A DNA stretch of 56,648 nucleotides from Prorocentrum cordatum (taxonomy: Eukaryota). The DNA lies in NCBI GenBank assembly GCA_963575745.1, contig CAUYUJ010000079.1:62001-118648 (forward strand), given 5' to 3'. This document shows, piece after piece, positions 12,531 to 56,648 of the stretch (positions within the stretch are counted from its first letter, which is position 1; each line of letters opens with the position of its first letter). Below the pieces are notes generated by a model. That model ran no database searches, was not told the origin of the DNA, and saw only the letters and a program-made list of their open reading frames with translations. The position numbers and the translations under genes were made by a program.

Positions 12531-15500
12531 TGAGAGCATCAGAGATACGAGCTGTCATCTTACCCACGGCGTACGCGGCCATGTCGACGGCACAGCTCTT
12601 CTTGTGGCGGCAATCTTCACAGTTGCCACCGCAAGTCCGCTGGTCCCACTCGTGATCGCACAGGTGACCCGACTTATATTCGATGCCATGATCTCGAAGG
12701 TATTGCTTCACCCCGTACGCTACTGCTACTGAACGGTGTCTATCCGAACGACATATCAAGATGATCGCGACGGATTCGGTGACCTTGCACTTCGCCAGCG
12801 CCTTGCCGATGCATTCAGCGATGTCTGGGAAGTGCTCGTTATCAGCTGCGGCCTTTAAGATACGAGGGTGAACTCCAATGTGCTCGGTGGACTGAGGATC
12901 GTTCAGCTCCCGAGTGTCAACAAATATGAGCCTATCGAAATCGCCATGCTCTGGGCGTGCGGCCATCAAGGCTTCGCAGAGAATTTGACCATCATGCCCA
13001 GCCGTAGACATCCCATAACTCTTGCCACGGTGCTTGTCGCGGAGGTACTCCGTCAACAGCTGGCTCCCCGAGGCATCAGGATGACTCTCGAAGTTCTCTA
13101 GGCCCATCGTGTAGACAGCGAAAGACTTGGCGCATGGTCCTGTGCTGGGAGCATCATCAGGCCTCTTGTCCTTGTGCAGACCCATGGCTGAGAATTTGCC
13201 GTGCTCGTCGTCGCTATGATCCAGAACGGTCTGACGCTGGGGGTCGGTATCGCCGATATCCTCCATGTTGCTCTGGGCCTGATATGATACGCGCAAAGGG
13301 CGAATAGACCCGGAAATCCGATCCGAATCGAACTGATCGAGACGAATGACAAGGAGACCTGAGCGGCTGCAGCGACACATCTCTATCTCGCCTTCCTGGT
13401 CCAGGATGGCGCGTCCGTCGGCGAGATCCTTGACGAGACCGAGGGAGACTTGTGCCGGTAGCGACAGCAAGAAAGGCACATGATCTGAATCCTTCAACTG
13501 ATGAGACTCGAAGCAACCGCTGACAGCACCGCACGTACCCACAATGCGATAGGGAAAACACTTCTTGCCCGTCGTGGAACTGCCAGCCTGACCACCAATG
13601 CCACTGTACGATTTCCGCTCCCTGTGGACCCATTGTGGAAAGAACCCTAGCTTCTCGCACTTGTCCTCTGCATTGAGGGCCCAAGCTTTTCCATGACAAC
13701 AAGAATTGCAACCTTCGTCCAGGGTAGCCCATACACCATCATCCTTGAAGACGTCCACCAAACGAAGCTTTGATATCGCCGACGTGTTGGTCGTTACTGA
13801 AGGTGCTGGTGTTGGTGCCATGAGCGCGATGAGCTCATTATCTGCTGCCTCTTGCACACAGTCGTGTAATAATGAAACCATCTCACTTGTGCTGATATCA
13901 CCTGTGTCCTGACATATCGACATAGCGCGCCTCGTGAACATCTTCATTACAACCTTCAGCTCCTCAGGTGATACACGGCGGTCGCCCTCGATGACCTTCT
14001 CCATCGCCTCCGCCTGGAGGTTAGAAGAGAGTTTGACCTTCCCCGCCGTGCTCTTCTTGTCCTCAGCGAGCGCACGGGGCTGTTCATCGATGTACGTCAA
14101 GCACTTGCAGCAGAACGTGCGATGAATGTCGGCAGTGCTACCCCGGTGGCCCACGAGATCGCGAGGGCACTCATCCGGCTGATGTAGTGCCTCGTATCTC
14201 TCCTTCTTGGTCTTGTGACCGCAGTCCCTGCAGGTGCGGACGATAAAGCGCGCCGATGAACCAGACCCCGAGAAGCTGGTGCAACCACGAGCACAGGGGT
14301 GAGGCAGCGGCGGATCCGGCGGCTTCCTGCTCGAAGTCCCGCTGGAGCTAGCCGAGGGCATGGCGCTCCCCTCGGTGCGGCGGCCGATGCTACCATCCTC
14401 CTTCTGGACAAAATACTCATCGAACCAAACCAAGAAGTTCTTCAGCTCCAAACTCGGCTTCTTCACACCGCGGCTCCACGATACATATTGTGGGGTCATC
14501 TTCAGCACTCGGCCATAGGAAAGCCCACGATGCTGGCCTGTAGCGAACACCGTATCGTGCCCTGGACCAGGGGCCAAATCTGGCGTCTCGCACTCCTCAT
14601 CCGATACAGAAGCCATCGACAAATTCTCTGGCCCGTCGGAGGCGTCGGTCGCCCTCGAGGCGGCGCTCGGGGCAGCAGCCCTCGAGGCCGAGGGTCTGCC
14701 TGGCGCGGCCTTGCTAGGCGCGCGCAGGGCCATGAACCCGAAGTGCTCCTCGCCAGCCTCCGCTGAGGTCTGGGGGCTCTCCAGAGTCGCGGCCGCGCGC
14801 CCGCGCTCGGGGCTGGTTTGGGCCAAAGCAGCAGCGGCCCCCATGCAACCCCTGCACGTGTGCTCCTCTTCATGACCAGACAGCAAGCAACAATGACCAT
14901 CACAATCCTTTCCCTCACAAGAACATGCCCTGCGACACTTCGAGGAGTGAGGGGAGAAGGAAGAGCGAAAGGAAACCTTGCCCGAGTGCGACATATTGCT
15001 ACTATAAGTATGATGATGGATGGTGGATGATAAGGCAATGGTTCCTGTAGGCGCGAACTGATGATCGTCGCCTTCCTCGCGTAACTGAAGCTCTCGCTCT
15101 CCAGTGAACGCTACAAAGCCCGTCCTGGGTTTGCCCTTGCACTCAGGGTCCCCGGACCAGTGGCCAATCTCATGGCAGGTCTTGCACTTGGAACGTTTCT
15201 TGATCTCCTGGAGTCGCTTTTTACGATCTTCCAGGGTCGGTGCTCCCTTGCCACCGCCCTTGGGCGGCAGTGTAGTTATCCAAGTTGTTGAGTTGTTGTG
15301 ACCTTTGCCTTTGCTTTTACCTTTACGACCTTCCTTGGTGTCTAGGTTGGCGACCAGGCTCTCTTGGATTACTTCGGAAGCTTCGTCCTCCGTGTAGCCC
15401 GCCTTGACCATCTCGTCAAACACGTCTCCATCGAGCTCGCTCTCCTCCTGCACGGGTGACCAGAGAGCGTACGATTCCTCGTCGCCCCAAGTTTGGTCCT

Positions 15501-16416
15501 CCGTCTGCCCGTCTGCCATCCAGGCTATGTCGGTCCAGGTCGTGTCGCCCCAGCCGTACTCTGGAGTGTAGCCAGACGCGTAGTATCCATAGGGACTAAG
15601 CTCCTCTGGATAGTGCTCCTCCTGCTCGTACCAACCTTCGTCGGTGGCGTGGAAGGCCTGGGGCGGCCTGCTGTACCGGGTCTTACCCTTGCCCTTGCTC
15701 CTGCTAGGGTAGCCGGGCCGATGCTGTGTCCACGACGATGGGTTGGAGCCCTTACTCGACGGGTCTCCACCTTTGGCCTTTTGGCGGATGTGGATACGGC
15801 CGTGCTGGAGGATCAAGACATCCTTGATATTGTCAAAGGTGGTCATGTTACCTGTGGATGTCAGCACCATCAGGTTTTCCGAGGGTGAAAGCCCTGCATG
15901 GTCCAAGAGGGGGGATCCAAGCGTGTCGTCACTCAGCACAAGCTTCGGGTCCAACTTGGTGACGAGTTTCCACCAACGCTTCCTGCGGGAGATGTATGAT
16001 ACCATCGATTCACCGTTCTGCCTGGACAGAGGGCCGTAGGGCCTCTGACCTACCTGGAACAGGATCTTGGCTTCCTGAGCCTCTATAGGGAAGAGTGAAG
16101 CACGAATCGCCGTTATCAGCTGGTCGATTCCTTTGGGAGTCAGAAGCGCGTCCTTACCGATATCCATGGCCATATCGAACGCGTCGCCTCTGAGGCCTTC
16201 TACAACTTTGTTGACGGCTGCGGTGACAACATGTGCCTGGGGTTCTCCTGTCTCTGCATCTACAGCAGACAAAGCAGCACTCATACGCATCTTTGTGCGG
16301 AACTCCCAGTCGTGAAAATTGTTCACGGTGCCATCATAGATGTAGGAGCCACCCTTCGTCTCCGACTGAGTCAACGCGTCGGCGTTCGACCGATAGCGAA
16401 GGGAAGACAGCGCCAT
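12445..16416 (-). CDS. gag: Element A polyprotein part 1: Gag, zinc knuckle, accessory Zn/FGKHKG-like modules, aspartic protease-like domain, RapZ-C-like domain
   Basis: Gag motifs YDG..F.DWEFR and ESMVSYISRR; knuckle CKTCHEIGHWSGDPEC (15139-15186); protease-like LDEGCN..YSGIGG..PFLLS; CRSDRHRSVAVA. Frameshifts near 12530 into the next ORF. Confidence 0.8.
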   Translation of the reverse strand: MALSSLRYRSNADALTQSETKGGSYIYDGTVNNFHDWEFRTKMRMSAALSAVDAETGEPQAHVVTAAVNKVVEGLRGDAFDMAMDIGKDALLTPKGIDQLITAIRASLFPIEAQEAKILFQVGQRPYGPLSRQNGESMVSYISRRKRWWKLVTKLDPKLVLSDDTLGSPLLDHAGLSPSENLMVLTSTGNMTTFDNIKDVLILQHGRIHIRQKAKGGDPSSKGSNPSSWTQHRPGYPSRSKGKGKTRYSRPPQAFHATDEGWYEQEEHYPEELSPYGYYASGYTPEYGWGDTTWTDIAWMADGQTEDQTWGDEESYALWSPVQEESELDGDVFDEMVKAGYTEDEASEVIQESLVANLDTKEGRKGKSKGKGHNNSTTWITTLPPKGGGKGAPTLEDRKKRLQEIKKRSKCKTCHEIGHWSGDPECKGKPRTGFVAFTGERELQLREEGDDHQFAPTGTIALSSTIHHHTYSSNMSHSGKVSFRSSFSPHSSKCRRACSCEGKDCDGHCCLLSGHEEEHTCRGCMGAAAALAQTSPERGRAAATLESPQTSAEAGEEHFGFMALRAPSKAAPGRPSASRAAAPSAASRATDASDGPENLSMASVSDEECETPDLAPGPGHDTVFATGQHRGLSYGRVLKMTPQYVSWSRGVKKPSLELKNFLVWFDEYFVQKEDGSIGRRTEGSAMPSASSSGTSSRKPPDPPLPHPCARGCTSFSGSGSSARFIVRTCRDCGHKTKKERYEALHQPDECPRDLVGHRGSTADIHRTFCCKCLTYIDEQPRALAEDKKSTAGKVKLSSNLQAEAMEKVIEGDRRVSPEELKVVMKMFTRRAMSICQDTGDISTSEMVSLLHDCVQEAADNELIALMAPTPAPSVTTNTSAISKLRLVDVFKDDGVWATLDEGCNSCCHGKAWALNAEDKCEKLGFFPQWVHRERKSYSGIGGQAGSSTTGKKCFPYRIVGTCGAVSGCFESHQLKDSDHVPFLLSLPAQVSLGLVKDLADGRAILDQEGEIEMCRCSRSGLLVIRLDQFDSDRISGSIRPLRVSYQAQSNMEDIGDTDPQRQTVLDHSDDEHGKFSAMGLHKDKRPDDAPSTGPCAKSFAVYTMGLENFESHPDASGSQLLTEYLRDKHRGKSYGMSTAGHDGQILCEALMAARPEHGDFDRLIFVDTRELNDPQSTEHIGVHPRILKAAADNEHFPDIAECIGKALAKCKVTESVAIILICRSDRHRSVAVAYGVKQYLRDHGIEYKSGHLCDHEWDQRTCGGNCEDCRHKKSCAVDMAAYAVGKMTARISDALTKHSSRCARRSAPAPAFTTRSAMSRLGS

Positions 16417-16535
16417 GGCGGCAAGGAAGCAATCCCCTCGTAAGGGTGGATGCCCAGTGCAAAGAAAAGGTGAGGAGCTCTCCTCGCGAGAGGACGAGCC
16501 CTGCGCAGTGGTACGATACCGAAGATCGTGTAGCA

Positions 16536-16547
16536 GCTCCGCTGCCA
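16536..16547 (-). promoter_or_regulatory. Primer-binding site (initiator tRNA-Met-like) of element A
   Basis: TGGCAGCGGAGC, 1 nt after the 5' LTR. It differs by one base from the element B PBS TGGTAGCGGAGC. Confidence 0.7.
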
Positions 16548-16548
16548 G

Positions 16549-16650
16549 TGTGATTGATGATACGTTTTCAAGCCAAGGCAAAAGGGGCCGCTAAGAGCCA
16601 AGCGGCGGCGAGTGGCGTACGAGCGCGTCATACACACACTATATATCACA
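16549..16650 (-). repeat. 5' LTR of copia element A
   Basis: Direct repeat of 7134-7235, followed on the minus strand by the PBS. Confidence 0.95.
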
Positions 16651-23040: not shown

Positions 23041-24175
23041 ACATTTCAAACTGCCCAGGCGCACCCGCAACCGCAACCAAACGACACATACCAACCCGCC
23101 CGCAGACGCAACCGCAACTGCAACCAAGCGACTCATCTCAACCCGCCTGCGGGCGCAACCGCAACTGCAACCGCAACCAAACGACACATTCCAACCCGCC
23201 CGCGGGCGCAACCGCAACCGAAACGGGGTGACACGTTTCAATCCGCCCGCAGGCGCAACCGTAACCGCAAGCAATTGACACATTTCAGCCCGCCCGCGGG
23301 CGCCACCGGAACCGCAACCAAGCGACACATTTCAACCCGCCCGCGGGTGCAGCTGCAACCGCAACAATAAACAAATGACACATTTAGACCCGAACTCGGG
23401 CGGAACACATTTCAACCAGCCCACAGGCGCAACCGCAAGCGCAACCAAGCGACACATTTCAAACCGCCCGCAGGCGCAACCGCAACCGCAACTGGAACCG
23501 CAATCAAACGACACATTTCAACCCGCCCGCGGGCGCAACCGCAACCGCAACCAAACGACACATACCAACCCGCCCGCGGGCGCAACCGCAACCGCAAGCA
23601 ATTTACACATTTCAGCCCGCCCGCGGGCGCAACCGCAATCGAAAACAAGCGACACGTTTCAACCCGCCTGCGGGCGTAACCACAACCGCAAACAAATGAC
23701 ACATTTCAACCCGCCCGCGGGTACAACCACAACCGCAACCAAGCGACACATTTCAACCCGCCCGCGGGCGCATCCGCAACCGCAACCAAGCGACGCATTT
23801 CAACCCGCCCGCGGGCGCAACCGTAACCGCAACCAAGCGACACATTTCAACCCGCCCGCGGGCGCATCCGCAACCGCAACCAAGCGACGAATTTCAACCC
23901 GCCCGCGGGCGCAACCGCAAGCGCAACTAGGCAACACATTTCTCAAACCGGCCGCGGGCGCAACCGCAACCGCAACCGCAATCGGAACATCAACCAAACT
24001 ACATACTTCAACCCGCCCGCGGGCGCAACCGCAGCCGAATCAAGGCGACACGTTTCAACCCGCCCGCGGGCGCAACCGCATCCGCAACCAAGCGACACAT
24101 TTCAACCCGCCCGCGGGCGCAACCGCAACCGCAAGCGCAACCAGGCGACACATTCCAACCCGCCCGCGGGCGCAT
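23041..24175 (+). repeat. Minisatellite, about 24 units of ~47-53 bp
   Basis: Consensus ACATTTCAACCCGCCCGCGGGC(GCAACC)2-4AAGCGAC. Confidence 0.95.
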
Positions 24176-28005: not shown

Positions 28006-28261
28006 ACTCCTCCTCCTCCTCCTCCTCCTCCTCCTCCTCTCCTCCTCCTCTCCTCCTCCTCCTCCTCTCCTCCTCCCCTCCTCCTCCTCCTCCTCCTCCT
28101 CCTCCTCCTCCTCCTCCTCCTCCTCCTCCTCCTCCGCCTCCTCCTCCTCCTCCTCCTCCATCTCCTCCTCCTCCTCCTCCTCCTCCTCCTCCTCTCCTCC
28201 TCCTCCTCCTCCTCCTCCTCCTCCTCCTCCTCCTCCTCCTCCTCCTCCTCCTCCTCCTCCT
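28006..28261. repeat. (CTC)n microsatellite
   Basis: Seen directly. Confidence 0.95.
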
Positions 28262-28618
28262 CACTCGGGCACATGGCTTAGGGATATGTGCTTCTGGTGC
28301 GCGGTCGCCAGACCCATGGATCTGGACCTGGGAGGGGAGCCCCGAGCACTGGCGCCGGTGCCGCCCGAGTTGGCGGTGGAGCGCGCCGATCCCGCATAGA
28401 GAAGAATGACCCGCCGCCGATCCGCGCGCGGGGCACTGGAGAAGGAACCGTTGGACCCGGAAGCCCGGGCCCGGAAGCCGGTGGAAAACCAATCGTGGAT
28501 TGGCCATGGATATCACCGCCGCCCTCATCAGATAAGGATATCCTCCAGGGTCTGCAGCCTCCTGGGCACACTCCTCCACGGAAGCCCCCCACCGTGATCC
28601 ATGCTCGCGCTTTCTCGG

Positions 28619-31152: not shown

Positions 31153-32545
<1,393 letters not shown>

Positions 32546-36500: not shown

Positions 36501-37193
36501 ACCGATCGTGGTGCCCGCCTGGTGACGCTTTGAGGAATAAGTCGGGATGTCGGAGCTGGCGCCAGAAGCTCTGGTTCTGCCGGAAGCGGACCTCGACGGT
36601 CTGGCGGCGCTGGCCGGCCTGAGGGACGAGGTGCGACTGCGAGGGCTCGTCGGAGAAGTTGAAGTCACCCATGGCGAGGAACGCGAGGCGGGGCGGGGCG
36701 CTGTTGGACCGCTGCGCGTGGGTGGCCCGCTCGTCGCGGAGCTTGATCTTCTGGGCGTCGCTGAGGTCGTCGTTGTGCGCGTTGAGGGCGCGGATCTCGC
36801 GGTCGGCGCTGCGGTTGGTGATCGCGATGAGCTGTGGGCGGCCGTCGACGACGATGCGGGGCGCGACGACGGGCTTGAAGAAGGACGGGGAGCAGCCAGC
36901 AGCAGCATCTTTGCGAAGCTGTTCCCTTTCCGCACGCGCGAGACCAGGTGCGGGGGCGGCGAGGCCACCGGCGCCCCGAGTCTCGCAGCCCCGAAAGTTG
37001 CCGCGGTTGGAGGCCGAGGAGGGAGAGCGCGCCAGCATGGTCTCCAGCTCAGCCTGCGAGCCGTGGCACTCCTGGATGAGGACGAGGGCCCGCGGGCGCA
37101 GGGCGTTCTGCAGCTTCCGAAACTTGAGGCGGCATCGTCTGGGTTGGGGCAGTGAGGCCCACGCGCGTTCCAGGAGGCGATCTGCAGAGGCAT
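33550..37193 (-). pseudogene. Element C ORF2 (APE endonuclease + reverse transcriptase), multiply frameshifted
   Basis: APE motifs MPLQIASWNARG, ALNAHN, MGDFNF, SDHA. RT motifs SAPGLDRLPY, RPLSLKN, QRGFTRGR, FDIKAAFPS, QGCPLSG, CADDLG (~34836-34853), KYLGV. C-terminal GWITTRRMH..ISHCLSCP. Confidence 0.85.
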
Positions 37194-37229
37194 TGTGCTC
37201 GGTGGCCTCCCACGGGGCCCAGTTGCTGT

Positions 37230-38699
37230 TGAGTGGGCCACGCCGAGGTGTCGATCGAGACGCAAGAGGCCTCGAATCTCTGCTTGACCATCTCCTCGTT
37301 GATGCCCATGGACGCGACCGCCGCGGGGCCCCGGTTGAGCTTGGAATGCTCGTGGAGGCCCTGCGGCTGGATCTCCACGATCGGCAATTGCGCCCGACTG
37401 TGCGATGCCCGACTGGGGCAGCGTCTTGAAGGTGACGTCAGGGTACTGCTCGCGCAGGATGCCCGCGACGCGCTTGGTCTGAAGCTCCTTGCGAACCTAC
37501 ATGGGCGACTTGTCGGCGGAGACGTAGAGCGGCGCGGCGGCGCCCTGGGCGTTGGGGGCCGAGAGCGCGCGCCATCTGCCACCGATAAGCTCAAGGGCGC
37601 GAGCGAGAGCGAGTGCGCGGGGCCGAGCGACTTCAGGTCCGCCACGAATGTGCACATGAAAGCGGCGAGCGGGGGCATCCTCGAGTAGTTGCACACGTTC
37701 GGCAGTGAGCTGGGCGTCCTGCATCCAGGGATCGAGGGCGCGACGTGCTTCAACAGGTTGGATGTTGCTCGGGGCGCCGATCTGGAAGAGGCACGGGTCC
37801 GGTTCGCGCTCGTAGTCCGCGAGGTTGGCGAGGTCGACGGAAGGGATTTGTTGCGCTTCTGCAAGAGAGACTGCTTGTTCGAGGCGGCGTGCGGCTTGGC
37901 CAAGATCTTCTTGCCGCGAGGCTTCTTCATCTTGGAGGCGGCGAATTTGTCGAAGGTCACGTTCTGCTTGTTCAATGCGGGCTTGCTGCGGGGCGTACTG
38001 CTGCTCGATGGTTGCGCGAAGATCATGTTGGACATTTTCCCAGGTCGTGTCGAAGAGGTTGCGGAGCTGTGAGGTGGACATGGTAAACTGCGCGTTGACC
38101 ACGCTCTCACTGGCAGCAGAGAGTCCAGCTGGTGCAGAACCTCCAGGAAGCTGTGGAAGCTGTGGGGGAGGCCCTGGGAGAACAGCTGCTGGGCGTTGCT
38201 GTCGTGGTGGTCGCGGTTCCGCGGGTCGCTCGGCAGCGGCTGCTGCAGCGTGCTGTGGAAGAGCTGGATGCGGCGCAGCGTCTGCTCGAAGTTCTTGTGA
38301 CGGAAACGTTGGGGCCACCTCGAGTTCGGCAGCGAGGCAAGCAGCGTCTTCCTGATCCATGGGGAGATCATGAGCGGCGCCTTGAAGAAGAGCAGATCCG
38401 GGGGCCTCACGGTCACGGGTTCCGCCGGATCCTGCAGATCGTCCCGGTCGCGAGGCACTGGTTGCTGTGGAGCGTCCCGATTGCCAAGGGTCTCGTCGTT
38501 GTAAAGGGTCACGTCTGTCTGAGCGATCACGGTCTCTGTCGCGGTCGTCGCGTCGTCGTTCACGTTCGCGTTTTTCCTCACGGCGTTTGGTTTGCCGAGC
38601 GCCGCTGCGTCGAGCACCGCCTCCTTCCGCCGATACCCCGCCACTTTTGGAGGCACGAGAACCTGTTGCAAGGGAACCGTCCGAGCTAGAAGATGACAT
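37230..38699 (-). pseudogene. Element C ORF1 (R/D-rich N-terminus, coiled coil), interrupted by TAG at 37497
   Basis: ~400-aa ORF from ATG 38699 with a heptad-like QQARIEQAERDLRQIRRLQ segment. Lies between the SL and ORF2. Confidence 0.6.
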
Positions 38700-38986
38700 A
38701 GTGACGGGTCGAAGAAGCACTGTTAACTGGCGGCGACGGCCTGTTGATAGGTGCTGAGATAGGCGGAGAAGAGCACGTAGGCGGCAACGAGAAGGATGGC
38801 GCTGGGCTGGGCCTGCAGCGAAAGCGGTGTGCCAGGGGCGCGAGGCTCAGTCCTGGGCTTTGATACGGAAGTGCCAGGGGCGCGAGGCTCAGTGCGAGGC
38901 TCAGTCCTGAGCTTGAGTCTGGAAAGGATCGCGCTGAGGAGTTTCTGAAATACCCCGCGAAGGCAGTGAAAAAGACGCCAATGGCC

Positions 38987-39008
38987 CTTGAGCCAAAATG
39001 GCTACGGA
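38987..39008 (-). other. Perfect genomic copy of the dinoflagellate spliced leader (DinoSL)
   Basis: Reverse complement is TCCGTAGCCATTTTGGCTCAAG, a 22/22 match to DCCGTAGCCATTTTGGCTCAAG. Confidence 0.95.
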
Positions 39009-39932: not shown

Positions 39933-40986
39933 TAGGAGGAGGAGGGAGGAGGAGGAGGAGGAGGAGGAGGAGGAGGAGGAGGAGGAGGAGGAGGAGGAGA
40001 GGAGGAAGAGGAAGAGGATGTGGAGGAGGAGGAGGAGGAGGAGGAGGAGGAGGAGGAGGAGGAGGGGGAGAAGGAGGAGGAGGAGGAGGAGGAGGAGGAG
40101 GAGGAGGAGGAGGAGGAGGCAGGCAGCACAACCCGGGCGGGAACCTCGCCAGGAGCGACGCCAGCGGCGCGGACGGCAGCGGCAGCTGCTCCTCCGAGGT
40201 GGATCGATCGAGGATCGAGGATTGGGAACCTCCTCGTCCCTGCCTCTGTGCCTCGCTGCCTCACTTCTGCCTCAGCCTCTCCTCCTTCTGCTCCTCCTCC
40301 TTCCTTCTCTCCATCCCTGCCTCCCTCCTCCACCCTCCTCATCCTCCCTCATCCTCCCTCCCTCCCTCCCTCCCTCCCTCCCTCGCTCCCCCTCCCCCTT
40401 CGTCATTCGCTCCTCCTCCCTCCTCCCTCCTCGGGCGAAATATCTCACAGAGCATCGCCAGCTGGGCGGCAGGGCTGCGTTTTAGGAGGAGGAGGGGGAG
40501 GAGGAGGAGGAGGAGGAGGAGGAGGAGGAGGAGGAGGAGGAGGAGGATGAGGAGGAGGAGGAGGAGGAGAAGGAGGAGGAGGCTGAGAAAACGAACGTAT
40601 GAAGGGGACGTCCTGTCTGATCATCAACCTCGCCCTCCTGTAGGGGGGGGGGGCCGTCGGGCGTCCTGCCTGGTTGTCCAGGAGCAGGATCGCCAAGTGG
40701 TCGGCGGCGGTAAGCGGAGCCGCTGTTTAGGAGGAGGAGGAGGAGGAGGAGGAGAAGGAGGAGGAGGAAGGAGGAAGGAGGAGGAGGAGGAGAGGAGGAG
40801 GAGGAAGGAGGAGGAGGAGAGAAGGAGGAGGAGGAGGAGGAGGAGGAGGAGGAGTGGAGGAGGAGGAGGGGGAGGAGGAGGAGAGGAGGAGGAGGAGGAG
40901 GGGAGAGGAGGGGGAGGAGGAGGAGGGCGGAGGAGCGGGAGGAGGAGGAGGAGGAGGAGGAGGAGGAGGAGGAGGAGGAGGAGGAG
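39933..40986. repeat. Cluster of (GAG)n / (CTC)n arrays
   Basis: Seen directly, with short unique spacers between arrays. Confidence 0.9.
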
Positions 40987-42471
40987 GGCGCGCGGCTCGG
41001 CGCGGTCCGCTCGCCGAGATGGGCAAGCGGCTGGCAGTGACAGCGCAAGCAGCACCAGCTGCCAGGAAGAGCCGCAGGGCGAAGCTGCGTTACCAGAAAA
41101 AACAGAACGTGCCGCAAGGCGAATCAGCTTGTATCGTCATTGCGCGGCCCAACCCATGGGTGGTTCCGTAGGCCCTGGACCTCCTCTAGGCCAATCCCAG
41201 ACTCCACTCGGTCAAAGCATCTGGGGTCAGGTATCGTTCCATAAGTGGTGGCGTGAGCCTCGCTCCCTGTACGGTGCTCCTGGTTCCTCTTCATGGCATG
41301 GGTATGGGCGCACTGCGAATGTCCCAGGCTTGATCTCTTCTTGTGCTCCCTCTTGCACTTTTCGGAGCGGATTCGTGCTACCTAGGTCGCGTAACTTCGC
41401 TATTCGCGCTCCACGATGCGCGTGGTGCAATAATCGTCGTGCCCTGGAGGGCTGGAAAGCGGCACCAACACCAACACAAGGGGGTGCCTCCACCGGGGAA
41501 AGATTATCCTATATACTGCGGTGCGGGTGATCATAGTTCGGCCACCCAAGAAGCCAGAATCTGACCTCCACTATCGAGATTAAGATCAAGCCCCCCTCGG
41601 CGGAGGCAATTGCCGACATTGGTATTCAGATGGTCCTCTAAATTCTGGCTCTGGTGGTCATAGTTCGTCCGCCTAAGAAGCCATACTATTACAACCATTA
41701 ACGAGATCGGGAGGCTTTGTTTTTCTTAAAAGAAGAAGGTCGAAGAAGAGGGCGGCCGCAACACCTCCCGAGTAACCGTGCACTCTGTGGTCAAAGCGGC
41801 CGAGACTCTCGAGTGGCATGACTTGCAGCAGCATCCCGACGTGAAAAAAACACTGGTGAGAAGAGGAGAGCGGAAAAGGAGGAGGAGGAGCAGGAGGAGG
41901 AGGAGGAGGAGGACGAGTAAGTATCGAGGTAGAGACAACCGCCAATACTGCGGTGGGTGATTCCCAGACATCTGACGTGCCATTTTTTCAGCGCGGTGAG
42001 AGTATTGGACAAGGGACCATGAGATAAGGAACCTAGAATCTGGACGACAGCGGGCACCAGATGAGGCTTGGCCATGGACATCGCCGCCGCCCTCATCAGG
42101 CAGGGAATCCCCCAGGGGCTGAAGCCTACACGTTCCTCAACGAACGCCCCCGCCGTGCGGGTTCCCTGGAATGTCGGACCCTCTCCTGGGGAAGCGACAA
42201 GATACCGATACCGTTACTCCCCAGACCTCTCCCGGGGTGCGTTTCACCAACAATTTCGAGGCGAATCCAGCGGTGGCGGCGAGGGCCTCCCAGGAGGCCC
42301 CCAAAGGAAAGAAACGGGCGACGGGCAGAGGTGCGGGCCAGTACCGTTTTTCCTCCTCTGGGCAGTTCCCGAACGAACGCTCCCCCCGTGGCGGGGTCAC
42401 CTGGGAGGTCGGACCCTTCTGCCAGGGAGCTAGTTTTTCGCTCCGAGGCGCCTGCTGGAGGAGGAGGAGGA

Positions 42472-47717: not shown

Positions 47718-47870
47718 TGTTGAAATCGACGCTGTCATCCCCGTTTCATGCTGTGTTACATTGCTCTCTTCTCTCGTGCTCGACCGCAACCGTTTTGGTT
47801 TACAGAGCTCTTGAGTTTACAGGCGGACACCATTCCCCAATCCCCCGACGGCGGCGGCCGTCAGTTGACA
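47718..47870 (+). repeat. 3' LTR of element B
   Basis: TGTTGAAATC...GTTGACA, 153 bp. Confidence 0.92.
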
Positions 47871-48383
47871 GGAGGAGGAGGAGGAGGAGGAGGAGGAGGA
47901 GGAGGAGGAGGAGGAGGAGGAGAGAAGAAGGGAAAGGAGAGAGGAGTAGGGGCACCGAGGAGGAGGAGGAGAGGAGGAGGAGGAGGAGGAGGGAGGAGGA
48001 GGAGGAGGGAGGAGGAGGAGGAGGAGGAGGAGGAGGGAGGCAGGAGGAGGAGGAGGAGGAGGGAGGAGGAGGAGGAGGGAGGAGGAGGGAGGAGGAGGAG
48101 GAGGAGGAGGACGAGAAGTAAGAGGAGAAAAGGAGAGGGAGGAGGAGGATGAGGAGGAGGAGGAGGAGGAGGAGGAGGAGGAGGAGGAGGAGGAGGAGGA
48201 GGAGGAGGGAGGAGAGGAGGAGGAGGGAGAGGAGGAGGATGGAAGGAGGAGAGGAGGAGGAGGAGGGAAGGAGGAGGAGGAAGGAGGAGGAGGCAGGAGG
48301 AGGAGGAGGAGGAGGAGGAGGAGGAGGAGGAGGAGGAGGAGGGGGAGGAGGAGGAGGAGGAGGAGGAGGAGGAGGAGGAGGAG
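47871..48383. repeat. (GAG)n microsatellite separating elements B and D
   Basis: Seen directly. Confidence 0.95.
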
Positions 48384-48402
48384 ACCGTAGCCTTGGCTCA
48401 AG
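48384..48402 (+). other. Relic dinoflagellate spliced leader
   Basis: ACCGTAGCC---TTGGCTCAAG is DinoSL with a 3-nt deletion, placed exactly at the microsatellite/element border. Confidence 0.85.
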
Positions 48403-48529
48403 GCCGTTTCCTTCTTCAGGTGGTTTCGCCTCCATCTGGGAGGGGTCAGGGCTCAAGTTTTCTGCCCTCAGGAGGGCACCCTTTTTGAACAGATCACGGA
48501 TTCACACCAGATCAGTGCTCCAGTCAGAC

Positions 48530-50254
48530 ATGGTCCGCGACGGAGAAGCAGTCTGGTGGTGCCCTTGCGGTCGCTACAACAAGTTGCGCTACCAGTCGTG
48601 CCTGTGCGGAACCAGCGTCCGCAACCAGGTCGCCTCACCGGTTGGCAAGGGCAAGGGCAAGGGCGCACCTCGCGCCAGAACGCCTGGTCGGCGCGGGGAA
48701 GAGCGTCGCAACCGTCTTCACGACAACTCGATGCAGCAGAACTCGGCTCAGATCCAGCAGGTCCTAGCCAAGATTCTCCCAGCCACCAAGTCCGTCGCGG
48801 AAGAGCACGAGAGGTTCGTCTCCCCGCCCGAGGACACCAAGAAGTATCCAGTCTTCCGCGACTCGCTCAAGTTTCGCATGCAGGCTCTGGGCTTTGCTGT
48901 TTACGCCGCCCAGCAAGCAGACGCGGAGGACGAGACAGCGGTCGAAGAGATCGCAATGATCAAATACACGTTGTCGGCGCTCAACCCGCTGCCCCAGCAG
49001 ATACTGGAAGCAAAGACGAGGTTGCAGCGCGCAGTAGACAGGCGCAAGGGGCTCCAGACCAAGATCGCCGAGATGGAGGAGTCGCTTGCATGCCTGGACG
49101 ACGAGATCTATGCCATCGAGGACGGCATCCAGCAGCTCGAGCAGTCGCTGGAGGACGAGGAGATGATGGTCGAGGAGGACGACCAGCAGCCGCCACCTCC
49201 GCCTGGAGGTGGCAAAGCGGAGGCGCTGCCCAAAGCCGGGCCCTGGGGGGCTCCCCATCACGGGCCAGGCACAGGGCAGCAGCCCCAGCAGGCGCCAGGC
49301 TTTCCGCCGAAGCAGCCGCCGTCACAGGCGCCGCCACAGCAAGTGCCAGGCTTTCCGCCGCAGCCGCCGATGCATGTGGCAGGAGGTGTGCCGCCACCGC
49401 CTCCGATACCGCACCAGATGGCGCCGCCAGACTTCAACACCCAGCTGGCCCAGATGCTCTACAATCTCGTCTCCAACCAGAACAGGATGGACCAGGCCAT
49501 GGGTCAGATCGTTGGTGCCATAAACAACCTGGGCTTGGGTCAGCCAGCCGCTGGCGGGCCCCAGGGCGTGACTCAGGCACCGAGGGCTTTCCAGACAGCC
49601 GCGGGCCCAGTGCAGCAGCCTGCAACATCACCGTCGGAGGCGGAGGGTCACCCACCCGGACTGCCAGCAGCTGGCACCCACGGGTTCGGTCAGCCGCCGA
49701 CCTTTGCCTTCGGTCAGCCAGCCATGAATTGGAGCGACCCGAGGCACCCGAATCACAACCAGTACCTCTTGGAGAAGGCCGCCCAGGAAGCGGTCGACAA
49801 GGTGCCGAAGTCTACGCCCGTAGAGAAGGACGAGCCCAAGACGCCGACGCCAGTCGGAGGTACAGCTACACCGATCTCGACGACGCCGCCAGCCAACTCC
49901 CTGGAGCAGCAGTTTCACGCCGCGATGGCATCGGGCGAGACCATTCACGTCCCATCGTCAGCAGAAGAGGCCGCGGCAGCTGTTTTGGGCGAGCCATTGG
50001 TCTCGCAGTATCCGTCACCTACTCAGGCATGGGGGCCAGCTTCTGCCCTGGCGGAGGCCACACCCTACGCGGAGATGCTGGCGCCCACGCAGTGCATGGC
50101 CACCCAGGGCGAGGCGATCCCAGGTCCAGCGACCTCGTGCACCTCGCCTCTCACGGCATCGACTGCGGCCTCGGACGGCCCGTCACCGGGCGCGGCCAGC
50201 CGAATGGACAAGAGCCGCTCACCGCCGCACAAGCTTCAGAAGACCGAGGACTAG
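48530..50254 (+). CDS. Element D ORF1, 574 aa (N-terminal Zn finger, coiled coil, P/Q-rich tail)
   Basis: WWCPCGRYN..QSCLCG (RanBP2-like), heptads LQTKIAEMEESLACLDDEIYAIEDGIQQLEQSL, intact frame. Confidence 0.75.
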   Translation: MVRDGEAVWWCPCGRYNKLRYQSCLCGTSVRNQVASPVGKGKGKGAPRARTPGRRGEERRNRLHDNSMQQNSAQIQQVLAKILPATKSVAEEHERFVSPPEDTKKYPVFRDSLKFRMQALGFAVYAAQQADAEDETAVEEIAMIKYTLSALNPLPQQILEAKTRLQRAVDRRKGLQTKIAEMEESLACLDDEIYAIEDGIQQLEQSLEDEEMMVEEDDQQPPPPPGGGKAEALPKAGPWGAPHHGPGTGQQPQQAPGFPPKQPPSQAPPQQVPGFPPQPPMHVAGGVPPPPPIPHQMAPPDFNTQLAQMLYNLVSNQNRMDQAMGQIVGAINNLGLGQPAAGGPQGVTQAPRAFQTAAGPVQQPATSPSEAEGHPPGLPAAGTHGFGQPPTFAFGQPAMNWSDPRHPNHNQYLLEKAAQEAVDKVPKSTPVEKDEPKTPTPVGGTATPISTTPPANSLEQQFHAAMASGETIHVPSSAEEAAAAVLGEPLVSQYPSPTQAWGPASALAEATPYAEMLAPTQCMATQGEAIPGPATSCTSPLTASTAASDGPSPGAASRMDKSRSPPHKLQKTED

Positions 50255-53200
50255 ACTCGGAACAGGGTGAATTGCATCTACCACGTCAGCGACGACGACT
50301 TCACTGGGGATCCGTTCTGACCAGGCCTTTTGTTTCAGGTTCGAGGGTATTCGTTTCAGCCCTCAACTCTCAGCAGCAGCCTAGCAGGTCGATTTTAATT
50401 AAAAGTCCGTCGCAGCAGCATCAGTCTTTTAAGCATCCTTCCTCCCCCCCCACTGTCAGAGACCATGGTCCGGTCGACGCGTCCTTGTTGTGTAAACACG
50501 AGCTCGCTCCCGTGCTTCAGTTGCTGTCAGCTGGCCTCTTGCGTTTAAGTGACGCTCTCACGTTCGCTGCCTCGCACTTGGTTTCGGTAAGTTCGAGGCA
50601 TACAGTTTCACGTGTCGCTAGGCCTAGTGGCCAAGATCTGTCACCACCACCCTGTGGCACTCTCCCTCCTGGAACCCCCTCTCCTGGGCGTGTCAGGCTT
50701 TCTCTGGAGCGCACTTTGTTCAATCCTGGGGACAAATCGGTGAAGTGCGACTTGGGAGACGGTGACAGACTCCTACGTGCTGTTCGTGATAGCGATCCTC
50801 TGTTGCTGGACGCCACGATGACCAGCGACCAATACCACCCAGCTGCCATCATGGCACTGGAAGTTTCCGACAGGGCAAGTGACATCGGAGACAGCATCAG
50901 CATATACACGGATGGGTCCCTTAGGAAGAAGGACGACTACACATCTTGGGCTTTCGTGGTTACCAGCATCCAGGGGGACACGCTTAACTACTACGGGCAC
51001 CTCAAGGGGATGACGGGCCTTTCTGTTCCTGGGGAATCACTACCTACTCTTGAATCCAGCACCTTCTGCGAGCTCCTGGGGATCGTTTGGGCTCTGGTCT
51101 GGGTCTATCAAGGGCTGTCCCTGGGCACCATAGGGACCAATACCATCATCAAGATTTACTCGGACAGCACCAGCGCGCTGGGACTTGCGCAGGGCTTGTT
51201 TGTTCCTTCGGCTTTCAGAGATACCGCTGCGGTTTCTCAGCATCTTTTCGCCACCGTCCAGGCTGCAGTTTGCTTGGCAGTTTACCATGTCTCTGCGCAC
51301 TCGGGCAACCCCTGGAACGAGCTCGCGGACGGGATCGCGAGCGATCAGGATGTTGGCCCCAGTCCCCTCCCTAGCTCGATCGTTCAAGATCTCTACCATA
51401 CCGTTGATCTGGATTGGGCCTGGATCACTCACCTGGACGAGGATCGTCGCTCGGCCTACCCCCTCGATGGTTCGGGTCGTTTGTCTCTCCCCCTCGTCCC
51501 CCATGGGTGTCGTGAGGACTGGATCGGATCGAGCACTCCTGAGGCCCCCAAGGTCAAAAGATCGATCAGATATGATTTCTCTGTTGTCAGTTTCAACGCC
51601 CTTACTGCTAAGGAAGACGCTGATTCCCTCGCTCGTGAAGACGAGGCGGACTTAGGTTCAGCCGCAGGACACTCGGCGGTCCTGATGCGGCAGCAGTTTG
51701 CTCACATGAACGTCCTCCTTGCTGGCATCCAGGAGGGCCGCAACAAAGAGGGATACAGGCTGGCCAACAATTACCTTATGTTTCGTGGCCCCTCACACAA
51801 TGGAAACCTTGGGTGTGAAATCTGGGTTAACGGGGCCCTCCCTTACGCTCGTGCTTGCGATCGGGAGTTCTTCCTGGAAAAGAAACACTGTTTGGCGGTC
51901 CACGCTTCTGCTAGATGCCTCATTTTGAAAATCAACGCCCCTCTGTTCAGGATTGTGGTGGCCTCTTGTCATGCCCCCCACAATGAGGAGCCGTTTACGT
52001 CCCGTCAGGCCTGGTGGAACCACCTGAGCGAGTTATTTTTGCGCTTCAAGGTGGACTGCTGTTTCATTGATGCCAACTCCAGAGTTGGAGTCAACTCGAC
52101 TACTTCGAGGTGTGGAGATCAGGGTTTTCCGCAGGCGCCTGACAGCTCCGGAGGCTCTTTTTGAAGTTTCTTGAGGAGGTCAACCTTAACGCGGTCAATA
52201 CGCTCTTACCTAACCTGGACGGCCCCGAGAAGGCCTATACCTGGACTGCTAACAATGGGAACCAGCACAGGCTTGACTATATTCTGATGTCTGACTATTT
52301 TTACAAAAACATGGTTTCGGTTAACACGTGTTTGGATTTCGACATTCAGAGGGACAAGCCTGATCATTACCCGGTTGTTGGGGTCTTTCGGGCTCTCCAT
52401 AACAAGGATATTGCGCCTCCCAGGGATACCATCAAGAGGGAGCTCACTAAGGACCCCCACCGCCGAGAGGCTTTCGCCATATTGCTGCGGAGTGCCCCCA
52501 CTGTTCATTGGAATACGAATATTAACGAGCATTATCGAGTTTTGGTTTCGCACATCATGTCGTCTGCTAACATTGCCTTTGGTACCCCAGCTTCAGTTCC
52601 CAATAAGCCGTACATCGACGAAGCTTTGCTTGCAGTAATTCATTTCCGGAGGCGTGTCAGGCAGATTATTCGCTCGAGCAGGAGAAAGGATTTCAAGGCC
52701 TTCATTTGGCACTGTGCATTATGCTCGGCGGGCATGCTCGACCTATCAGCACTGCCCGACAGGATTGCTTACCTCGCCATTGAGTTCGTCACCATGTCAG
52801 CTAACTACGGGTGGGGATATACTAGTTTGGAAAACATCATCAGAGCCATGGGCATGTTCCTCCAGAGGTCCCAGAAGATCCTTCGAAAACACATCAAACA
52901 AGCTAGGGACGACAAAATCAACAACCTCGGCAAGGAGCTTAGTGAGCAAGAGTTGGCTGGTCAGGCCTCATTGGAATGGAGCACGCTTCACACTCTGCAG
53001 AGGTTCGGTGGCAAAGCAAGTAGGTTCTGCTCGGACGGCCTACCGATGCGCATCGACGATCAAGGCAAGGTTTTGGACAGCGATAAGGCTATCGCTGACG
53101 AGACACTCCGCATTTTCGGGGCCAACGAGCATGCCAAGATACAGAAGCTAACTGCCCTTTGCTTGGACTATAACGCTCAAGTTAGTACGGACACCCCGGA

Positions 53201-56200
53201 GGAAATCAAGCTTGAAAATCTCTCTAGTCTCAGGACCCTCATGATTTCCCTCACCAGGTCGAAGAAAGGTAAAGCTGGGGGCCTCGACGGGGTCATTCAC
53301 GAGCTTTACCAAGCGGCTGTACCGGAGACGGCTGCCATGCTTTTACCCTTGTTCCTCAAGATGCAGATGCTTTGTCAAGAACCGTTATGGGCCAAAGGAG
53401 GCCTGGCTGCGAGCATTTATAAAAAAGGTCCCTGGGTCGATCTGCACAACGATCGGCAGATTTTACTCGGGTCCACGGTCCTTAAACACCATCATGCTTT
53501 CGTTCGCCGTGCCTTTGTTCAGATAGCCACACAGCTGATTGGCGAGTGCCAGATGGGAGGTCTACCGCATCGAGGCACGGACCTCGCCTACCTCAGCTTG
53601 AGCCTGTTTCAGACCATCTGCGAGCAGATGGGCCTTTCCTCCATCATCCTCTTCTCTGACCTCACCCAGGCTTTCTACTCTGTCATCCTCCAGTTTGTCT
53701 CCTCCCTCAAGGGACAGACTCAGGACTTGGAGGCCATCTTGGACGATTTGAAGGTCCCTGAATGTTTGACCCCCTTCTTAGAGGCCGTGGTGGCTTCCCC
53801 CAAAATCCTGGACGATTTTGTGGACACTCACGTTCACAACATGGTCGCCGAAACCTTCAGGACTCCTTGGTTCGAAGTCAAGGGCTCTTCGGCCCTGGCT
53901 CAAAGCAATTCTGGTACCCGCCCTGGGATGCCCCTGGCCGATTTTATATTCAACATCAGTTTCAAACCCGTTCAGGACGACATACACACTCGGTTAGGTG
54001 CTGCTGGCCTGCGGTTGCAGTTGGACGAGCTTCCAGATGCCAAGCGTGTTTTTCGAGCTGCAGACGGCAGTCAAGACGCTACAGCTGCGCAAGGATCGAC
54101 CTTTGTGGACGATCTCATTACTCTTGCAGTGATTTACGACAATCGACTTTGGCGACCAGCTGTTGAAAAAACAGTCGAGATTGTGCATTCAGCAGTGCGA
54201 GCTCGTGGTTTTGTTCCCAACTACGGCCCTGGCAAAACGGAGATCATGGTCGCGTTTCGGGGCCCCCAGGCCAACAAGTGTCGTGCTGAGCTTTGCCACG
54301 GTCCTGCTCCCAGGCTCCAGATAGACAAGTACGACCTCTCAGTGCCAGCTGCAGTTTCATACAAGTATTTGGGCACCATGGTCGATAGGTACGCTAGCAT
54401 GGGCCCCGAGGTCTCCTACAGGATTAATCAACAAAATGGCGCCCTCAGCACTCTCAAGAAGCACGTGTTCAGGAACCCCAATATCGAGCCTAATACTAAA
54501 GTCAAGTACGCTAAGGCCCTATGTTCCTCGAGGCTCCTCTACAACAGCGAGATATGGTGTGGTCTTACGGTTGCTCAAAGGGATCGCCTTGACAACGCCC
54601 ACTCCCTCCCCTTCCGCTATGCCACAGGGTGTTTTAATGCTAATCCCTTGTTGGACAAAGAGCCAGCGGCCAAAGCACTGAAGTTGGCCAATTCTGTTCC
54701 CGCGTCTATGCTCATTCGCCTAAGGAGAATTCGGTTGGTCTCGAAGCTAGCTCGTTTCGCCCCCAACATCCTGCGGCATATGTTGGATCTGGCCCTGCAC
54801 TTCTGTGCTGGGTGGGCGGGCGAGCTCATAGGTGACTTTGGATGGTGGAGTGACTTCCTGGACCTCCCTGGCCACCACAGGCCGATCGGTGATTTTTCCT
54901 GGTGGATTTTTTGTTCCCTGGATGGGCCCCAGTGGAAATGCTGGTGTAAAAACGTTTTAAGCGCAGTTACCCGTACCTTTGCTGATCAGGCGGACCTGCA
55001 ATGCTGGCACAGCCAGATCCGCCACCTATGCATTGATGATAATATCCCCCCCCCTCCCTCGGTGAGCCTTCCTCCTCCCACCCTTTTATATCCGTGTGAT
55101 AATTGCGACTTTGTCGCTAGGACGCTCGCCACTTGGAAGGGCCACTGTACCAAGGCCCATCCCTCTCTCGACCCAGCCCAGGCCGTTGCACGTGGAACAG
55201 TATGCCAGAGTTGTTGTCGTGAGTTCTGGACCCATCCTCGTCTCTTGAAGCATGTGAGGAGATCCGCTCGTTGCCTTTCTTCCCTTGTCGCGGTTATGAC
55301 GCCGCTTAGCGATGAAGATATCTGCGCTGACAAGGTTGAAGATGCGTTTCTCACCAAAGCCCTAAGGCAAAAAGGTAGATATGCAGAATTCTCAGAGTCT
55401 CCCCCCGTGGCTATCATAGGTCCGCGGCTTTTGGGTTGCCCTTGCTCGCCTGTTTGTGCCTTGTCGCGCCAGCCGGTTGAGGCTCCTGAAACCGAAGTTG
55501 TTCCCGCCCAGATTGATAGACCCTTAGCCACGGGGGTGTATTATATTTTTAGTCTTTTTTCCGGTCAGAGGCGCCCCAAAGACACGCAAGATTACCTAGA
55601 AGGCTTTCTCAGGGATAGCCCCAGGCCGGTTCTGTTTTTATCCATGATATTGTAAACGATGCCAGAGTCGGTGACCTCACCCGCCCTGTGTCTCTCGCTA
55701 TCCTGCTCAACTTCATACGTTCTGATCTTGTGCTCGCTATGTTGTCAGGACCTCCATGTGAAACATGGAGTTGTGCCCGTGCTCAGCCCCCGCCTGAAGG
55801 TCAGGACCGCCCCCGCGTCCTCCGCTCCTCCTCCTCCCTCTGGGGGCTCGGGCACATTTCCCCCAAGGAATGGAAGCAGGTCGCCCTAGGTAACGCCCTC
55901 CTCAGGGCGACCCTGCTGCTGGGCATGGCCGCGGCGGCGCACGGCGCCGCTTTCATCATGGAGCATCCTGATAGGCCGGGCCCCTCCCATCTCCCGAGCT
56001 GCTGGTCCCTCCCCGAGGTTCGGCATTTTACGGGGTTGATTGGAAAGGCCGCTTGTTCGTATGTGGAATTCATTTCGATTGATCAGTGCGAGTTTAATGC
56101 CAGAGGACAGAAGCCGACTTGCCTGCTCACAGTGAATGCTCCGAGAGTTCGTGAATGGCTAGATTTGCTGCCCAACAGGGGTCGCTGCAGTCACGGGTTT

Positions 56201-56452
56201 AATCACCCCCCCCTCCTTGGTCTTTCCTCCCGTGGAGGCTTCAGGACAGCCGCGGCCAAGCAGTATCCACCGAGGCTCTGTCGCCTCCTCGCTGCTGCAG
56301 TTCACGAACAGTGCTCGGCCCTTTCCCCCCCGACCGAACCTAGGGACATATGGGATGCTGTTCACCCTGAGTTAGCGGCGTTTTATACCCCCCTCGATCC
56401 CTACTATCTGGGGCATGGTTGGGATTGGTTTGGGGCGGATTTTGCCGCTTAA
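50255..56452 (+). CDS. Element D ORF2: RNase H, APE endonuclease, RT, C2H2 Zn fingers, C5-DNMT. Two 1-nt frameshifts (~52160, ~55645); start codon uncertain
   Basis: RNH IYTDGS/ELLG/YSDS/HSGNPWNELAD (50900-51330). APE SFNALT/GIQEGR/HAPH/IDANSRVG/RLDYI/DHYPV. RT KAGGLDG/SDLTQAFYSV/GTRPGMPLAD/FVDD/YKYLG. ZnF CDNC..H..H and CQSC..H..C. DNMT LFSG/S.DI..GDL/GPPCETWS/MEHP/KPT/QYPPRLC. Confidence 0.9.
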
Positions 56453-56541
56453 CCCCCCTCTCCTCCCTCGCCTCCCTCCCCTGCATGTTCCTTGCTGCTG
56501 TTGCTGTTGACACCTCGACCTCATGGTTCTCAGGGGAGTGC

Positions 56542-56648
<107 letters not shown>

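Follow-up and report, generated by a model that had tools for sequence, protein, structure and literature searches.

The last 8.3 kb of a 56,648-nt stretch of DNA from the red-tide dinoflagellate Prorocentrum cordatum (contig CAUYUJ010000079.1 of assembly GCA_963575745.1, forward-strand positions 62,001 to 118,648; the whole stretch is referred to as the window) are one full-length, recently inserted APE-type retrotransposon lacking long terminal repeats (non-LTR retrotransposon), at 48384–56648 on the plus strand. The second open reading frame of this element (ORF2) encodes, in this order, an RNase H (RNH), an APE-type endonuclease (APE), a reverse transcriptase (RT), two zinc fingers (ZnF) and a C-terminal domain of about 300 residues, which we refer to as domain X. 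We think it probable that the element is a long interspersed nuclear element (LINE) in which an RNH-APE-RT-ZnF ORF2 ends in a very divergent domain of the cytosine-5 methyltransferase (C5-MTase) fold.

Overall organization of the element

The element is longer than in a preliminary description of its coding region, which began at 50895. We found its 5' end at 48384, the start of ORF1 at 48530 and the ORF2 start codon at 50818, and its parts are as follows.

48384..48402, plus strand: relic dinoflagellate spliced leader at the 5' end of the element; 19 of 22 leader positions present and 3 nt missing internally
48403..48529, plus strand: 5' untranslated region (UTR), from the leader relic to the first ATG of the ORF1 frame
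48530..50254, plus strand: ORF1, 574 codons (open frame 48122..50254, first ATG at 48530)
50255..50817, plus strand: ORF1–ORF2 spacer, 563 nt, with the ORF2 start set at 50818
50818..56452, plus strand: ORF2, about 1878 codons in three frames, with two 1-nt deletions; stop codon 56450–56452
56453..56541, plus strand: 3' UTR, 89 nt
56542..56648, plus strand: (GTA)n 3' tail, 35.7 perfect units, continuing past the window edge

The leader was sought as the 22-nt dinoflagellate spliced leader (DinoSL) in the form printed in PMC6050394. This pattern matches 48385–48402, and the window contains two matches in total compared with none in 100 shuffles. The relic starts directly at the end (48383) of an (AGG)n array, and because it stands at the 5' end we conclude that the element was copied from trans-spliced RNA. 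ORF1 consists of an N-terminal Cys-rich finger-like motif, a coiled-coil-like middle and a Pro/Gln-rich tail; its Pfam scan returned DUF724 only (E 0.098), which places it in no family, and DNA_methylase was not found. Within the window, the element is present as one copy. Its frames have no stops, its 35.7-unit tail is perfect and its leader is nearly intact, and on these grounds it looks young, in agreement with the preliminary description. Separately, the (AGG)n array that adjoins the leader relic may be the insertion site of the LINE.

ORF2 domains up to the zinc fingers

Three plus-strand open frames (..52164; 52143..55655; 55619..56452) together make up a single coding region, in which in-frame stop codons are absent. 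The start was put at 50818 because the P. cordatum protein P0004 begins at the equivalent Met. Upstream of domain X, this coding region contains four features.

50893..51345, plus strand: RNase H (Pfam RNase_H, E 2.4e-5, 25.0 bits; cut-off 25.8)
about 51571..52388, plus strand: APE-type (exo-endo-phosphatase) endonuclease, interrupted by the first frameshift; the P0007 alignment covers the region
53445..54374, plus strand: RT core (Pfam RVT_1, E 0.0068, 16.6 bits, below cut-off)
55095..55274, plus strand: two zinc fingers, C2H2 at 55095–55160 and Cys-x2-Cys...His...Cys at 55203–55274, read from the translation

The RNase H has a complete D-E-D-H-D set (D 50911, E 51070, D 51163, H 51298 and D 51328, read from the translation). 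The window itself falls 0.8 bits short of the profile cut-off, and homologues score 27–48 bits (top 47.6) at the same N-terminal place, above the cut-off; with all five residues present and the homologue profile matches, we assign the domain to type-1 RNase H (PF00075). The N-terminal RNase H that the preliminary description gave to this LINE ORF2 is borne out by the 25.0-bit Pfam match, the D-E-D-H-D residues and the homologues.

The other domains were traced in the same way through 20 long homologues, of which 9 matched RNase_H in Pfam, 6 Exo_endo_phos, 7 RVT_1 and 4 C2H2-type fingers. The two window pieces of the APE endonuclease, split by the frameshift, had no Pfam match; the six Exo_endo_phos matches lie at the equivalent place, reach 27.4 bits and exceed the cut-off in P0046 and P0053. 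The RT carries F-V-D-D at 54102–54113 (read from the translation), and among the homologues RVT_1 reaches 40 bits in P0055 and 30.6 bits in P0088, both above the cut-off. The finger matches in four homologues are also at the equivalent place. A search of the three ORF2 pieces against PDB sequences gave no relevant match. Motifs of the APE endonuclease and RT were picked by eye in the ORF2 translation, under their customary names. RT and an endonuclease on its N-terminal side share one ORF that is collinear with the homologues, the arrangement of an APE-type LINE.

Conservation of the domain order

The three pieces of ORF2 map in order onto P0007, a single-frame protein of 2258 amino acids (aa). 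Residues 71–519 of piece A align with P0007 60–513 (E 8e-41), residues 1–1153 of piece B with 530–1761 (E 4e-81), and residues 8–276 of piece C with 1778–2042 (E 7.6e-49). The matched segments are in the same order in 21 of 21 long homologues, and RNase H comes first wherever it is present. An RNase H or methyltransferase domain out of frame with RT in other copies had been named beforehand as grounds for giving up the preliminary reading; the opposite was found, as RNH-APE-RT-ZnF-X is conserved and P0007 encodes it in a single frame. None of the 20 long homologues scanned matched DNA_methylase at E ≤ 0.001, and 3 of them were without any Pfam family.

Domain X forms a very large family, with 2766 representatives in a full HMMER scan at a threshold of E ≤ 1e-3, of which 1175 reach E ≤ 1e-10 and 42 reach E ≤ 1e-30. 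Our alignment holds 151 sequences (150 matches plus the window piece), of which 27 have at least 1200 aa; in 25 of these 27, domain X ends no more than 120 aa from the C-terminus. The named sources of relatives are Prorocentrum cordatum and Fugacium kawagutii, and the Atlas cluster nearest to domain X is eukaryotic, with Haptophyta commonest among its 10 members of known phylum. A word-index homologue search gave one match for the RT piece and nine, in longer proteins, for domain X. Judged from these alignments, members of a large family normally have their domains in the order RNH-APE-RT-ZnF-X.

Other family copies were represented by 92 contigs of the public run X1 that are 90–99% like the compared stretch: 8 at 99% identity or more, 42 at 95–99% and 42 at 90–95%. 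Runs X2 and X3 covered 13 and 3 of 30 bins. Of the 237 differences between copies, 40 were listed, and third codon positions hold 28 of these 40 (p 2.4e-6). Because of this third-position excess, we conclude that the family diverged under purifying selection on this frame.

Predicted fold of domain X

55536..56449, plus strand: domain X, divergent C5-methyltransferase-like Rossmann domain (predicted)

The AlphaFold model of the domain in an intact homologue, P0015, has a predicted local distance difference test (pLDDT) score of 87.4 and a predicted template modelling (pTM) score of 0.87, and shows the alternating strand–helix order of a class-I methyltransferase. In a Foldseek search with this model, all 39 rows listed were DNMT3A/B/C, DNMT1, Dnmt2, M.HaeIII or a prophage DNA methyltransferase, with a best E of 2.6e-4. 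A search independent of Foldseek (VIA) placed cytosine-5 MTases at all of ranks 1–14 with Z 9.9–7.8, led by DNMT3B (9.9), M.HhaI (9.5) and DNMT3A (9.4) and extending down to ZMET2 (7.8); generic Rossmann dehydrogenases appear from Z 7.5. The window's own piece, which is without the first strand and helix, gave a model of pLDDT 87.2. Here too, ranks 1–15 of the VIA search are all C5-MTases (Z 7.7–6.1), with dehydrogenases next at 6.0, and the first Foldseek rows are DNMT1 and M.HaeIII (E 0.014–0.02).

Since the single scores are modest, the case for the fold rests on consistency across two models and two aligners. Domain X is thus predicted to adopt a class-I methyltransferase fold with C5-MTases as the nearest solved structures, at modest scores, and we consider it justified by the models to describe it as a divergent C5-MTase-like domain.

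Conserved motifs of domain X

The motifs of domain X are, in order, Phe-Ser-Gly, Ser-x-Asp-Ile, Gly-Asp-Leu, Pro-Pro-Cys, Glu-His-Pro and Lys-x-Tyr-Pro, which we compare with the numbered C5-MTase motifs of the known enzymes. Pro-Pro-Cys is at 55751–55759 (Cys 55757–55759), and the Cys is present in 135 of 140 family sequences. It stands after strand 4 and is the candidate for the Pro-Cys nucleophile of motif IV. At the end of the next strand is Glu-His-Pro (Glu 55961), whose Glu and His are each found in 148 of 150 sequences. The Asp of Ser-x-Asp, after strand 2, is conserved in 122 of 125, and Gly-Asp/Asn in 123 of 126 (Asp in 95, Asn in 28). The motif I loop, Phe-Ser-Gly-x-Arg-Arg, is more variable, with Gly in 77 of 105.

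A feature outside this series is a conserved Gly-Arg-Cys-x-His...His (56162–56200 region) that follows the last strand and precedes the C-terminal helix. The family also has a conserved Asp-Gln-Cys, with Cys in 87 of 149 sequences. The two could form a small metal site that stands in for a target-recognition domain.

Evidence on the identity and activity of domain X

Several observations weigh against a C5-MTase assignment or against activity. At the sequence level, Pfam found no DNA_methylase match in the window's domain X piece (E ≤ 0.1), and only sub-threshold matches in 4 of 50 relatives (best E 0.11). The domain X profile had no match among PDB sequences at E ≤ 10. With hhalign, the probability was 2.4% against an alignment of Dcm only and 1.3% against Dcm plus eight phage MTases, in each case over the motif IV region only; these templates are shallow (effective number of sequences 1.8 and 2.6), so that the negative is a weak one. 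By profile, domain X would not be placed in PF00145. At the structural level, template modelling (TM) scores are 0.24–0.37 with a root-mean-square deviation of 4–11 Å, the top Z of 9.9 exceeds unrelated Rossmann folds by only about 2.4, and the window piece has neither a Foldseek match at E 0.001 nor a Z reaching 8. Motif I retains only Phe-x-Gly, its second Gly being Arg, the Arg-x-Arg of motif VIII is not evident in domain X, and there is no sizeable target-recognition domain. The preliminary description had listed all catalytic motifs of four enzymes as intact, and this holds for RNase H, the APE endonuclease and RT but not for the fourth enzyme, owing to the partial motif I and the motif VIII that is not evident. 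The equivalence of the Cys and Glu to the catalytic residues of DNA methyltransferases (DNMTs) is suggested by order and spacing only.

The CpG signal is weak as well. The observed/expected CpG ratio is 0.73 in ORF2 and 0.91–1.03 in the flanks, and a CpG context was found in only 4 of 23 transitions between copies, a sample, drawn from the 40 listed differences, that is too small to be of use. In addition, the passages of PMC5890265 cited here report that the DNMT of the Symbiodinium element SymbioLINE was inactive in yeast, and for this reason activity of DNMT-like domains in retroelements should not be assumed.

Pointing the other way, PHROGs matches shared by two or more members are confined to four 'DNA methyltransferase' families, with 16, 5, 4 and 2 of 50 members matching (best E 0.024). 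The local hhalign match places Pro-Pro-Cys on Pro-Cys-Gln of Dcm. As a lead only, the nearest named Atlas clusters to domain X are cytosine methylases, at 0.89 and 0.88.

In the scheme that we propose, the APE endonuclease would nick the target, RT would prime on the nick and copy the RNA, and the N-terminal RNase H would strip the RNA template. Domain X would bind S-adenosylmethionine via its Phe-x-Gly, Asp and Gly-Asp elements, and would modify a pyrimidine at C5 by the conserved Cys of Pro-Pro-Cys and the Glu of Glu-His-Pro. The likeliest substrate would be a cytosine of the new cDNA or of the integration site. Whereas the organization, domain order, fold neighbours and conserved residues described above are shown by the analysis, the cofactor, catalysis, substrate and timing of domain X are inferred. 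Self-methylation during target-primed reverse transcription (TPRT), as the preliminary description had it, is an attractive proposal on this scheme.

The scheme can be carried further. Domain X may represent an active, so far unrecognised clade of eukaryotic C5-MTases that escapes standard DNMT profiles, resides at the ORF2 C-terminus in thousands of lineages of LINEs from dinoflagellates and further marine protists, and methylates the new cDNA or the integration site during TPRT. We regard this wider claim as possible but doubtful. If it is true, DNMT censuses based on PF00145 have missed a large share of the methyltransferase genes in these genomes, and the N-terminal RNase H defines a new LINE architecture.

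Alternatively, domain X could be a Rossmann domain that merely resembles the C5-MTases, either another enzyme or a non-catalytic nucleic-acid-binding module, with a convergent Pro-Cys. The lack of a significant profile match would fit this, as would the atypical glycine loop and motif VIII and the short-chain dehydrogenases that come near the DNMT scores at Z 7.5. However, C5-MTases head four of four fold searches, the order and spacing of the motifs fit the DNMT series, and the sole local hhalign match falls on the motif that should hold the nucleophile. All weak HMM matches with more than one member are to DNA methyltransferase families, and the near-invariant Cys and Glu favour catalysis. 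We therefore consider a look-alike unlikely. Of the C-terminal DNMT in the preliminary description, the structural part thus stands. A significant C5-MTase profile match, whose absence had been named beforehand as a further ground for giving up that reading, was found neither by Pfam nor by hhalign (1.3–2.4%), so that the DNMT label falls by that test.

A somewhat less likely possibility still is that domain X is a Dnmt2-like C5-MTase acting on RNA, which might mark or stabilise a tRNA or the transcript of the element itself. The structural neighbours include Dnmt2 and EhMeth (Z 8.2 and 8.0), a large DNA target-recognition domain is missing, the CpG-decay signature is weak, and RNA methylation was raised for LINE-borne DNMT by de Mendoza et al., in the cited passages of PMC5890265. 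But DNMT3B, M.HhaI and DNMT3A are above Dnmt2 in Z, where rows within 1 Z unit count as tied. A divergent C5-MTase fold at the end of a LINE ORF2 remains our preferred reading.

Frame breaks in ORF2

52154..52155, plus strand: frameshift 1, one base fewer than in the other copies of the family
55644..55645, plus strand: frameshift 2, one base missing in the Ile codon of Ser-Ile-Asp-Ile

ORF2 changes frame exactly twice, each time by one missing base (–1 type). Behind 52154, an extra base is present in all X1 contigs that cover the site (T, depth 19.4; C, depth 8.45; of 27.8 in total), and the P. cordatum protein P0004, 96% identical to the RT piece over 34% of that piece, is in frame across this break. 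Behind 55644, the single covering X1 contig has an extra T (depth 10.2 of 10.2). Adding a base at either site gives a single frame, and at the second it restores the Leu-Ser-Ile-Asp-Ile of the family. Both deletions are specific to this copy, and the related contigs carry the base. The two single-base frameshifts of the preliminary description were thus correct in number, and the second was correctly located in the S.DI motif; the first is not in the T5 run at 52158–52162, as had been stated, but 4–8 nt upstream of it. Because of the two 1-nt deletions, the full protein cannot be made from the copy as assembled.

At a little below even chances, in our judgement, both breaks are errors of assembly or sequencing, with an intact and potentially active copy in the genome. 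Both deletions are in two-base runs (C/CC and T/TT), the commonest error of long-read consensus sequences; 5.6 kb are without a stop codon, the tail is perfect, and the missing base is present in all related contigs. On the other hand, the compared contigs differ from the present copy at many other places and so represent other copies rather than this one, and true 1-nt deletions are also frequent in young dead copies. Programmed –1 ribosomal frameshifting in the family, suggested by the shared direction of the two changes and the nearby T-rich runs, is extremely improbable and was rejected, as both places are read without a frame change in the other family copies and in every distant homologue, and a canonical zero-frame slippery heptamer is present at neither.

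The comparison with reads yielded two further observations. The differences between 51800–56452 and the X1 contigs are strongly skewed, on the coding strand, to transitions among pyrimidines (T>C 62 and C>T 45, compared with 7 for A>G and 17 for G>A). Pyrimidines make up 62% of third codon positions and A only 11%, which accounts for part of this 4.5-fold skew, perhaps not all. Two 151-nt contigs of the estuary metagenome run X3 are identical to 56141–56437, which covers the stop region and the last part of domain X, indicating that the same or a near-identical copy is present in that environmental sample.

Other features of the window

The second of the window's two DinoSL matches is a perfect 21-nt match at 38987–39007 on the minus strand. 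It may mark a retroposed gene, a further element capped by a leader, or a spliced-leader gene reading leftwards from about 39007. Directly downstream are the minus-strand open frames 37049..38722 and 37497..38846; the former had no Pfam match.

On the same strand, three long open frames abut at 7811–16590. The first, 7811–9052, encodes a copia-type reverse transcriptase (RVT_2, E 7.5e-13, 49 bits); the second, 9053–12538 (1161 aa), matches no Pfam family, and the third, 12445–16590 (1381 aa), has a weak RapZ_C match only. Together they are probably a very large Ty1/copia-like element. A plus-strand open frame of 1123 aa runs from the left edge (1–3372); its PIF1-like helicase match (E 0.0082) is below the cut-off, and it may be part of a Helitron-type element. 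Long triplet arrays of the types (AGG)n, (GGA)n and (CTC)n occur at many places (47870–48383, 31154–32541, 28007–28262, 40729–40987 and others), and a 47-nt satellite occupies 23058–24174.

Comparison with known systems

Retrotransposons with their own DNA methyltransferase are rare, and they bear on how mobile elements cope with host silencing. Domain X would add a second, far more divergent methyltransferase-like module, fused to an RT polyprotein and with 2766 representative relatives that current profiles would not annotate. If the domain is active, DNMT gene counts in dinoflagellates are too low, and a cDNA could be modified by the very polypeptide that makes it.

The closest solved structures are those of DNMT3A/3B, M.HhaI and M.HaeIII (PDB 6u8p, 4u7t, 10mh and 3ubt), with Z 9.9–7.3 over 176–204 aligned residues. 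Domain X appears to share with these enzymes the Phe-x-Gly, the acidic residue after strand 2, the Gly-Asp, the Pro-Cys after strand 4, the Glu that follows strand 5 and a helix at the C-terminus, all in the same order, and it is similarly compact to DNMT3. It differs from them in its identity of 7–15%, the absence of a significant profile match and the lack of an evident Arg-x-Arg. Unlike C5-MTases, domain X has Glu-His-Pro for Glu-Asn-Val and Cys-Glu-Thr-Trp for Cys-Gln-x-Phe, together with conserved inserts of its own (Gly-Pro-Arg-Pro-Leu-Arg and Gly-Arg-Cys...His).

The cited text of Kojima and Jurka (2015, PMC4640811) lists I, Ingi, Tad1, R1, Loa, plant L1 and Dualen as LINE clades that have an RNase H, and describes the position upstream of RT as 'unique' to the oomycete Utopia, which has a restriction-like endonuclease. 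In the clades so listed, the domain is known to follow RT. Like these clades and Utopia, the present element has its own type-1 RNase H with D-E-D-H-D; unlike them, it has the RNase H as its first domain, ahead of the APE endonuclease. This is an unreported domain order in the literature searched. Within the open-access literature text covered, we found no description of RNH-APE-RT-ZnF-X, of a LINE with an N-terminal RNase H, or of a dinoflagellate DNMT at the C-terminus of ORF2.

The DinoSL-tagged retrogenes described in the cited part of PMC6050394 likewise have a spliced-leader relic at the extreme 5' end of the retrotransposed unit. In the present element a single relic is seen, with its 3-nt internal gap.

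Among elements that carry a DNMT, those listed in the portion of a 2026 preprint cited here (10.64898/2026.05.21.726589) are SymbioDIRS-DNMT3, SymbioLINE-DNMT, Gypsy-DNMT3 and the preprint's own EpiLTRs; a LINE with the domain at the ORF2 C-terminus is absent from that list. The nearest precedent, and the sole published LINE case that we found, is SymbioLINE-Dnmt (de Mendoza et al. 2018, PMC5890265). As far as the cited passages go, it resembles the present element in being a dinoflagellate non-LTR element with APE and RT, no poly-A tail and a C5-MTase-type domain, and in having CpG mildly depleted relative to the genome. The LINE–DNMT precedent from Symbiodinium invoked by the preliminary description exists, but its DNMT, detectable with PF00145, belongs to ORF1, upstream of the RT ORF, rather than to the C-terminus of ORF2; those passages mention RNase_H for the DIRS Pol. 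In the present element, by contrast, the MTase-like domain forms the C-terminal end of ORF2 and is invisible to PF00145, ORF1 is without a DNMT, and ORF2 begins with RNase H.

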